Shown here piece after piece: positions 9,900-10,139 of a stretch of DNA of 64,000 bases. The DNA lies in NCBI RefSeq assembly GCF_003334785.1, contig NZ_QOWV01000004.1; one strand, 5' to 3'. Position numbers and translations under genes: made by a program. Positions within the stretch are counted from its first letter, which is position 1. Each line of letters starts with the position of its first letter. Source of the stretch: Escherichia coli (GTDB lineage: Bacteria; Pseudomonadota; Gammaproteobacteria; Enterobacterales; Enterobacteriaceae). Below the pieces are notes generated by a model, which was given only the letters and a program-made list of their open reading frames with translations, was not told the origin of the DNA and made no database searches.

Positions 9900-10139
9900 G
9901 ACTGGCTGAATGGTCTGTCATACTTTGTTACCTGCAAAGGGGAGTAACTTCATTGCCGGTCGATCGTCATTACGATGTGTGAAAAAACACATCCGGTCAC
10001 CGGGCAACCCGAAAGGAATACGCAGACGTATTCCTTTTTTGTTGTAAGTGAGACCTTGCCGGAAGGCGAGGTCTATGCATAAAAAGCAGCGGCTGACGTC
10101 TTCCGACGTTGGCCGTTTTTTTATGTGTAAGGAACTTCT
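9900..10139 (+). promoter_or_regulatory. alx 5' leader (pH-responsive RNA element); contains hairpins, a GC stem followed by a T7 run (about 10088-10124) and a 2-codon mini-ORF (atgtgtaa)
   Basis: Structured 240-bp untranslated region upstream of alx; the established alx leader riboregulator maps here. Confidence 0.55.

Follow-up and report, generated by a model that had tools for sequence, protein, structure and literature searches.

The alx leader of Escherichia coli: a known Mn2+ riboswitch with an AUG probably held in a terminator stem, and a covarying inverted repeat across the alx promoter

What is carried by the 240 bp that precede alx in Escherichia coli, and does a short reading frame directly upstream of the gene take part in its expression? 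The question was raised by an initial annotation made from the letters of a 64,000-nucleotide stretch of contig NZ_QOWV01000004.1 (assembly GCF_003334785.1; hereafter the window, to which all positions refer), which noted a 9-bp stem, a GC stem followed by seven T and a Met-Cys-stop mini-ORF possibly coupled to alx translation. The elements around alx described below lie on the + strand unless stated otherwise. Between 9800 and 10200, the sequence does not differ from that of E. coli K-12 MG1655 (K-12 coordinate = window + 3228440), and a search of complete E. coli genomes matches 9800-10300 in 5420 of 5426. The gene order is ygjQ (8100-8792), ygjR (8853-9857), which is the gene 5' of the alx intergenic region, alx (10140-11105, start ATG at 10140-10142) and sstT (11504-12748). 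The alx product is annotated as "TerC family membrane protein Alx" or "Mn(2+) exporter Alx", and neither of the 2 RefSeq genome annotations examined places any feature, riboswitch included, between ygjR and alx. For comparison, a protein-anchored scan yielded 80 orthologous loci from different Enterobacterales species (81 sequences including the window), with ygjR as the upstream neighbour of alx in nearly all of them. A MAFFT alignment of the whole region was too gappy, and 2 anchored alignments were used instead, one of 68 distinct alx leaders (A1) and one, ungapped, of 54 promoters (A2).

The 5' leader of E. coli alx, the PRE, is said to have been the subject of a study by Nechooshtan in 2009. 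In PMC9472077 (Stephen and Mishanina, 2022) and PMC12153347 (Stephen et al., 2025), the PRE is the pH-responsive element of E. coli alx, formerly SraF; individual leader bases are named in these Mishanina laboratory papers (A11, C36, A37, C58, C73/A74 and A137), and intrinsic termination is placed at approximately nt 108 and nt 190. Within 9700-10140, the seven named bases fit one offset only (window = 9932 + n), which sets the transcript start at approximately 9933, the length of the leader at 207 nt and the alx ATG at nt 208. The sequence and position are those of the K-12 alx leader, with terminators at approximately nt 108 and nt 190. The leader is structured far beyond chance (231 nt, -100.4 kcal/mol, z = -8.4). 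When the minimum-energy fold of the E. coli sequence was imposed on the 68 leaders, 85.5% of cells could pair, compared to approximately 40% with the partners slid, and 39 pairs changed on both sides, the observed value being reached by 0 of 500 shuffles; as the tested structure came from one of the aligned sequences, the paired fraction is inflated, but the compensatory changes in the aptamer helices are not. As part of the overall explanation of the region, we identify the stretch from approximately 9933 to 10139, with a probability of roughly 85%, as the published PRE, which belongs to the alx type of yybP-ykoY Mn2+ riboswitches. The description of the leader as an established pH-responsive RNA element was thus correct, and the element is in addition a yybP-ykoY Mn2+ riboswitch (PMC9472077, PMC12153347).

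The alx-type Mn2+ aptamer (PRE nt 1-128, 9933-10060; PMC12153347) consists of invariant blocks and covarying helices. Near its 5' end lies the L1 strand GGGGAGTA (9939-9946), invariant in the 68 leaders, which corresponds to the family motif GGGGAGUA; the string GCAAAGGGGAGTAACTT is likewise invariant and matches the RF00080 consensus UUGGGGAGUAGC. L3, CGTCATTACG (9965-9974), is invariant or nearly so in the same leaders and is a sequence variant of the consensus form GUCAAcAUAC in the P3 leg (PMC12153347), lying between the covarying P3 helices (9956-9966 / 9994-10003 and 9974-9980 / 9987-9993), which display compensatory changes. The 3' switch strand GTAAGTGAGACCTTGCCG (10044-10061) is invariant in the 68 leaders, and GAGACCTTGC can pair either with GCAAAGG, forming the P1.1 switch helix, or with GGCGAGGTCT, forming P5; both partner strands are invariant in all 68. 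Downstream, alx provides the Mn2+ exporter gene (TerC, MntP or P-type ATPase) expected after a yybP-ykoY riboswitch. The four-way junction with a P2 hairpin was not found, L1 and P3 being separated by only 7 nt (TTCATTG), with no hairpin; according to PMC12153347, the alx riboswitch has a three-way junction, lacks P2 and differs in L3.

The absence of P2 bears on the outcome of the Rfam/Infernal scan which the initial annotation had suggested for an alx/PRE model, counting the lack of a covariance-model hit as grounds for rejection. RF00080 gave no match to alx at E<=10 in segments of 4.5 kb, 351 nt and 153 nt, nor at the gathering score in the whole window. That RF00080 was absent from the covariance-model library is ruled out by a positive control, the E. 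coli mntP leader, which the model finds with 41.6 bits and E = 7e-10. In the model, L1 and P3 are separated by a P2 hairpin, and alx is not matched because this hairpin is missing. The negative scan is therefore a limitation of the RF00080 model rather than evidence against the alx element, which is genuine and cannot be dismissed on such a scan, and it exposes a gap in Rfam, the RF00080 model of Rfam 15 missing the alx-type (three-way-junction) Mn2+ riboswitches. Separately, the established mntP Mn2+ riboswitch of E. coli (locus L002, 1462-1558) itself scores below the RF00080 gathering score of 45, so that annotation at the gathering score would miss both E. coli members of the family.

Downstream of P3, the leader contains 2 intrinsic terminators. 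The first, hairpin B or P4 (10004-10045; stem 10011-10022 / 10027-10038; T6 at 10035-10040; z = -6.9), was recovered by a terminator scan as 10011-10038 with a T-run reaching 10040, that is nt 108, exactly at the published site, and an in vivo Term-seq 3' end maps to K-12 position 3238482 (Adams 2021 tables), equal to window position 10042 or nt 110. P4 varies widely between species in length and sequence, with compensatory changes, and is short or devoid of a T-run in many genera. In E. albertii (L003, 1180-1370) and in 3 further loci (L050, L017 and L030) it carries insertions of approximately 100-180 nt or more, those of E. albertii and Superficieibacter including REP-like palindromes (GCCTGATGCG...GCATCCGGCA); large insertions thus appear to be tolerated by P4.

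The second terminator, hairpin D or P6 (10075-10128; core 10089-10100 / 10105-10116; T7 at 10116-10122), was found by the scan as a hairpin at 10088-10117 followed by T7 up to 10122, that is nt 190, again exactly at the published site, and its core and T-run are kept in 68 of 68 enterobacterial leaders. The GC stem followed by seven T was hence well recognized: it is the published terminator D, one of 2 intrinsic terminators in the leader (PMC9472077, PMC12153347). The stem is prolonged by an extension, ATGCATAAAAAG / TTTTTTATGTGT (10075-10086 / 10117-10128), which includes the inverted repeat I7 (CATAAAAA / TTTTTATG), and P6 with this extension folds at -27.7 kcal/mol (z = -6.5). We found no mention of this extension with its AUG in the sections of PMC9472077 and PMC12153347 that were consulted. 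Between the 2 terminators, P5 (10051-10060 / 10065-10074), a helix of the inactive conformer, takes the 3' switch strand of the aptamer, as described in PMC12153347. A further inverted repeat (I6), CGGAAGGCG / CGTCTTCCG (10060-10068 / 10097-10105), could form an alternative helix that would block P6; an alternative helix of the active conformer is described in PMC9472077 and PMC12153347, and we infer that I6 is a candidate for this "C/D" or "P5/P6" helix. As a separate observation, the leader appears to be only approximately 110 nt long in Atlantibacter (L026 and L035), with GGGGAGTCAC as L1, and approximately 229 nt in A. hermannii (L029); the short form could be a partly deleted riboswitch.

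The alx Shine-Dalgarno sequence AAGGA occupies 10129-10133. Equilibrium folding of the leader yields a minimum-energy fold which resembles the inactive state and in which L1 is base-paired to the ribosome-binding site of alx (9940-9945 / 10134-10139 and 9948-9950 / 10129-10131); when P1 was enforced, the resulting fold was not the active conformer of the literature. Sequestration of the ribosome-binding site by L1, with P5/P6, is described for the inactive alx leader in PMC12153347, Mn2+ binding and Mn2+-dependent alx expression have been reported (PMC10197570, PMC12153347), and PMC9472077 and PMC12153347 report a pH-dependent co-transcriptional switch of the PRE between an inactive and an active fold. 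Combining the switch mechanism from the literature (PMC12153347, PMC10197570, PMC9472077) with the anatomy, conservation and covariation from this analysis, the region probably operates as follows. Transcription of the 207-nt leader would start at approximately 9933 from a sigma-70 promoter whose -35 and -10 hexamers begin at 9898 and 9921 and which has a CpxR box at -60. At neutral pH or without Mn2+, the 3' switch strand would quit the aptamer and form P5, P6 would form the intrinsic terminator, and pairing with L1 would occlude the Shine-Dalgarno and start region, so that alx would not be translated. In an alkaline cytosol, the Mn2+ level would rise and the Mn2+-bound aptamer would keep the P1.1 switch strand; the alternative helix would then compete with P6, and the ribosome-binding site would be free.

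Does the reading frame behind the second T-run add a further layer to this control? The letters atgtgtaa are present at 10123-10130, but their reading as Met-Cys-stop was wrong: the ATG opens the frame ATG TGT AAG GAA CTT CTA TGA (MCKELL*, 10123-10143), the TGA of which overlaps the alx ATG (ATGA), whereas TAA at 10128-10130 is in frame with GTG 10125 only, forming a GTG-TAA start-stop in another frame (10125-10130). Nor does the string end 9 nt before the Shine-Dalgarno sequence, as had been stated; these 9 nt separate it from the alx ATG (10140), and it is overlapped by AAGGA, the alx Shine-Dalgarno sequence itself sitting inside the MCKELL* frame. Short ORFs read by eye are error-prone, as this out-of-frame stop and the pairing of the ATG described below illustrate.

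The ATG at 10123 is best explained, as far as the leader sequences and their predicted folds go, as the 3' strand of the A-tract/U-tract extension of P6, with a structural rather than a coding role. In the minimum-energy fold, AUG (nt 191-193) pairs with C146-A147-U148 within the 12-bp extension AUGCAUAAAAAG / UUUUUUAUGUGU. Among the 68 leaders, an ATG directly 3' of the T-run occurs in 29, all of which have the complementary CAT before the A-tract; ATG without CAT occurs in none, CAT alone in 4 and neither in 35, an association (29:0) that ignores phylogeny and may reflect two or three independent origins only. Local folds show the AUG base-paired to that CAU in all 29, completely in 26 and, in the 3 Yersinia, in part. 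By comparison, the ORF is not conserved in presence, frame or length: 36 of the 81 sequences lack an ATG within 30 nt, and the rest are split among frames, with at least 5 different outcomes across relatives. These comprise a 6-codon ORF with the ATGA overlap at its end (Escherichia and most Citrobacter), a TAATG overlap (one Citrobacter), an ATG-TAA start-stop (Klebsiella and Raoultella), an ATG in frame with alx at -18 (Enterobacter and Lelliottia) and other frames (Pseudocitrobacter, Kluyvera and Yersinia), while one Escherichia species, Salmonella and many others have no ATG.

Two of these arrangements deserve mention in their own right. In Enterobacter and Lelliottia (L021, L022, L028, L042, L044 and L046-L048), the ATG lies 18 nt 5' of alx (approximately 1483-1485) with no stop in between and with the alx Shine-Dalgarno sequence falling between the 2 ATGs, so that gene callers could set the alx start 6 codons too early. 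In Klebsiella and Raoultella (L034, L038, L039, L041, L045 and L053; approximately 1484-1489), the TAA of the ATG-TAA overlaps the alx Shine-Dalgarno sequence (TAAGGAA).

The same comparison weighs on the alternative that the 6-codon uORF (ATG 10123 to TGA 10141-10143) is translated in the active riboswitch, with the AUGA passing ribosomes on to alx or the ribosome opening the L1:RBS pairing, which we regard as very improbable. Its stop does overlap the alx start in E. coli, 12 of the 14 Escherichia and Citrobacter sequences (the window counted) keep a 5-6-codon ORF ending at or overlapping the alx ATG, and AUGA overlaps can support termination-reinitiation (PMC9841429). Yet the overlap is automatic for any ORF in this frame, as alx begins with ATGA, and the chance that four sense codons stay open is approximately 0.83. 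The ATG has no Shine-Dalgarno sequence of its own, being preceded by GGCCGTTTTTTT, that is, by the U7 run only; minimum-energy and local folds alike place the AUG in a base-paired part of the P6 extension; the ATG is missing from one Escherichia species and from Salmonella, and in other relatives it opens a start-stop, extends alx in frame or begins a long ORF in another frame. The K-12 annotation has no CDS at this position, and the main text of the literature searched yielded no report of an alx uORF or of translation here. The suggested translational coupling is thus unsupported, because the 6-codon ORF has neither a Shine-Dalgarno sequence nor a conserved frame and its AUG is accounted for by base pairing. 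That ribosomes do initiate at the AUGUG behind terminator D (for the 6-codon ORF or GUG-UAA), tuning alx translation in Escherichia and Citrobacter, is also less likely than the reading of the promoter repeat as an RNA hairpin, given below; base pairing in the P6 extension is the role we prefer for this AUG.

Upstream of the leader, the assigned sigma-70 promoter of alx (9898-9926) comprises a -35 hexamer TTGACT (9898-9903), a 17-nt spacer and a -10 hexamer TACTTT (9921-9926). A consensus promoter scan missed it because the -10 hexamer matches at 3 of 6 positions only; the columns TTGA(C) and TA(C/T)TTT are invariant in the 54 promoters, which supports the assignment, and their position fits a start at approximately 9933. 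An exact direct repeat GTAAA-N5-GTAAA, a pattern which we take to be the CpxR binding consensus, lies at 9866-9880, centred at approximately -60 of the promoter, and 33 of 60 Enterobacterales species carry the exact box there as well. We consider 9866-9880 a putative CpxR site, the conservation of which fits the reported activation of alx by CpxR (PMC9600279). The box is overlapped by a promoter-like sequence on the - strand (TTTACA-18-TATAGT, 10/12, 9880-9851), directed antisense into the 3' end of ygjR.

The promoter is itself crossed by a perfect 10-bp inverted repeat (I3), ACAGACCATT / AATGGTCTGT (9890-9899 / 9909-9918), with a 9-nt loop, which spans the -35 hexamer and the spacer. This is the 9-bp stem placed by the initial annotation at approximately 9888-9916 in the leader. 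The stem is real and, with 10 of 10 bp paired, slightly longer than described, but with a transcript start at approximately 9933 it lies at -43 to -15, upstream of the start and outside the leader RNA. Across the 54 promoters, 66% of repeat cells pair, compared to 31-43% with the partner slid, which also lowers the covariation score from 0.233 to 0.08-0.13; the folding z-score is approximately -2.9 on either strand. In Klebsiella, Pantoea and others, the repeat is absent though ygjR is adjacent. The helix being intact in just 26 of the 54 promoters, and related sequences being able to beat all shuffles without any structure, the repeat might be functionless, a by-product of promoter constraints and of common descent within one subclade of enterobacteria. 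We find this unlikely, given that the slid controls, in which relatedness is kept, score two- to three-fold lower, that the folding z-score is low on either strand and that, by our own estimate, a perfect 10-bp short-loop repeat is expected by chance approximately 0.005 times in 300 nt.

If the repeat is functional, does it act as DNA or as RNA? A perfect 10-bp palindrome across the -35 hexamer and spacer could be the operator of a dimeric regulator or a supercoiling-dependent cruciform modulating the alx promoter, which would suit the response of alx transcription to pH and CpxR (PMC10197570, PMC9600279) and the observation that the outer CAG/CTG and inner CAT/ATG are the most conserved positions of the repeat. 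The central three pairs, however, occur in at least 6 complementary combinations (ACC/GGT, GCC/GGC, GAC/GTC, GGC/GCC, AGC/GCT and GTC/GAC), as if pairing and not a fixed recognition sequence were selected, and the mismatches on the + strand are G·T more often than A·C (20 vs 6), a bias that action at the DNA level does not predict; we hold such action to be no more probable than the absence of function. The covariation pattern, taken from the sequences, indicates selection for pairing in + strand RNA, and, as the repeat precedes the alx start, RNA at this site can only come from read-through out of ygjR.

Our best guess for the repeat is accordingly that it may form a hairpin or terminator at the 3' end of ygjR RNA which overlaps the alx promoter. 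That this hairpin is a functional RNA element, with a single 40-nt stretch ending upstream transcription and starting that of alx, we advance tentatively, as a possibility with roughly one chance in three. As a terminator, the repeat would be atypical, with a 10-bp stem containing 4 GC pairs, a 9-nt loop and the tail CATACTTTGTT; the terminator scan made no call, and a simple terminator rule that admits loops of up to 9 nt is passed by 14 of the 54 promoters. Across relatives, the loop measures 9-13 nt and holds the -35 hexamer, and the U-tract is weak. The Term-seq tables (Adams 2021) contain no 3' end for ygjR and are uninformative on the terminator idea, and we found no mention of the repeat in the consulted sections of PMC9472077 and PMC12153347. 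The alx promoter hairpin offers a small, testable case of possible terminator-promoter overlap. Two other pairings nearby were discarded, namely an outer helix GTAACA / TGTTAC around the repeat, the 5' arm of which overlaps the inner helix and the informative column pair of which is complementary in about half of the species, and the repeat I2 (9862-9874 / 9915-9927), which overlaps I3 and is not obviously conserved.

Elsewhere in the window, a long GC-rich inverted repeat (CCCTCTCCCTTCCAGGGAGAGGGTCGGGGTGAGGG ... CCCTCACCCTAACCCTCTCCCC) lies between alx and sstT (11150-11268); it gives weak, chance-level miRNA matches in Rfam and appears to be either a repeated extragenic palindrome or the terminator of alx. 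Two naRNA4 (REP-derived) matches exceed the gathering score (2861-2942 and 2961-3042, - strand), and the RNase P RNA gene is located at 41663-42039 (- strand, 318.6 bits).

How does the region compare with known systems? Start-stop minimal ORFs and AUGA overlaps have been described in E. coli (PMC9841429; bioRxiv 10.1101/520783), and AUGUGUAA likewise holds an ambiguous AUGUG start, its AUG frame ending in an AUGA overlap and its GUG frame forming a start-stop, as in those minimal ORFs. In the functional E. coli examples, however, an SD-like sequence is present and initiation has been detected experimentally, whereas the alx AUG has no Shine-Dalgarno sequence and is paired, and neither its frame nor the ATG is conserved. 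The E. coli mntP riboswitch shares with alx the L1 sequence GGGGAGUA, an L3 of the form GUCAnnUAC, the switch helix, translational control and a Mn2+ exporter gene downstream; it differs in having a P2 helix, a four-way junction and an RF00080 match of 41.6 bits, whereas alx is without P2 and has a three-way junction, a terminator in P4, a different L3 and no RF00080 match (PMC12153347). With the published E. coli alx PRE, the agreement is complete: the sequence, the numbering, the two terminators, P5/P6, the sequestration of the ribosome-binding site by L1 and the TerC-family exporter are all the same here. The alx leader is among the best-studied riboswitches of E. coli, and finding it again adds nothing new; the region is an already known element, which differs in nothing from the published PRE.
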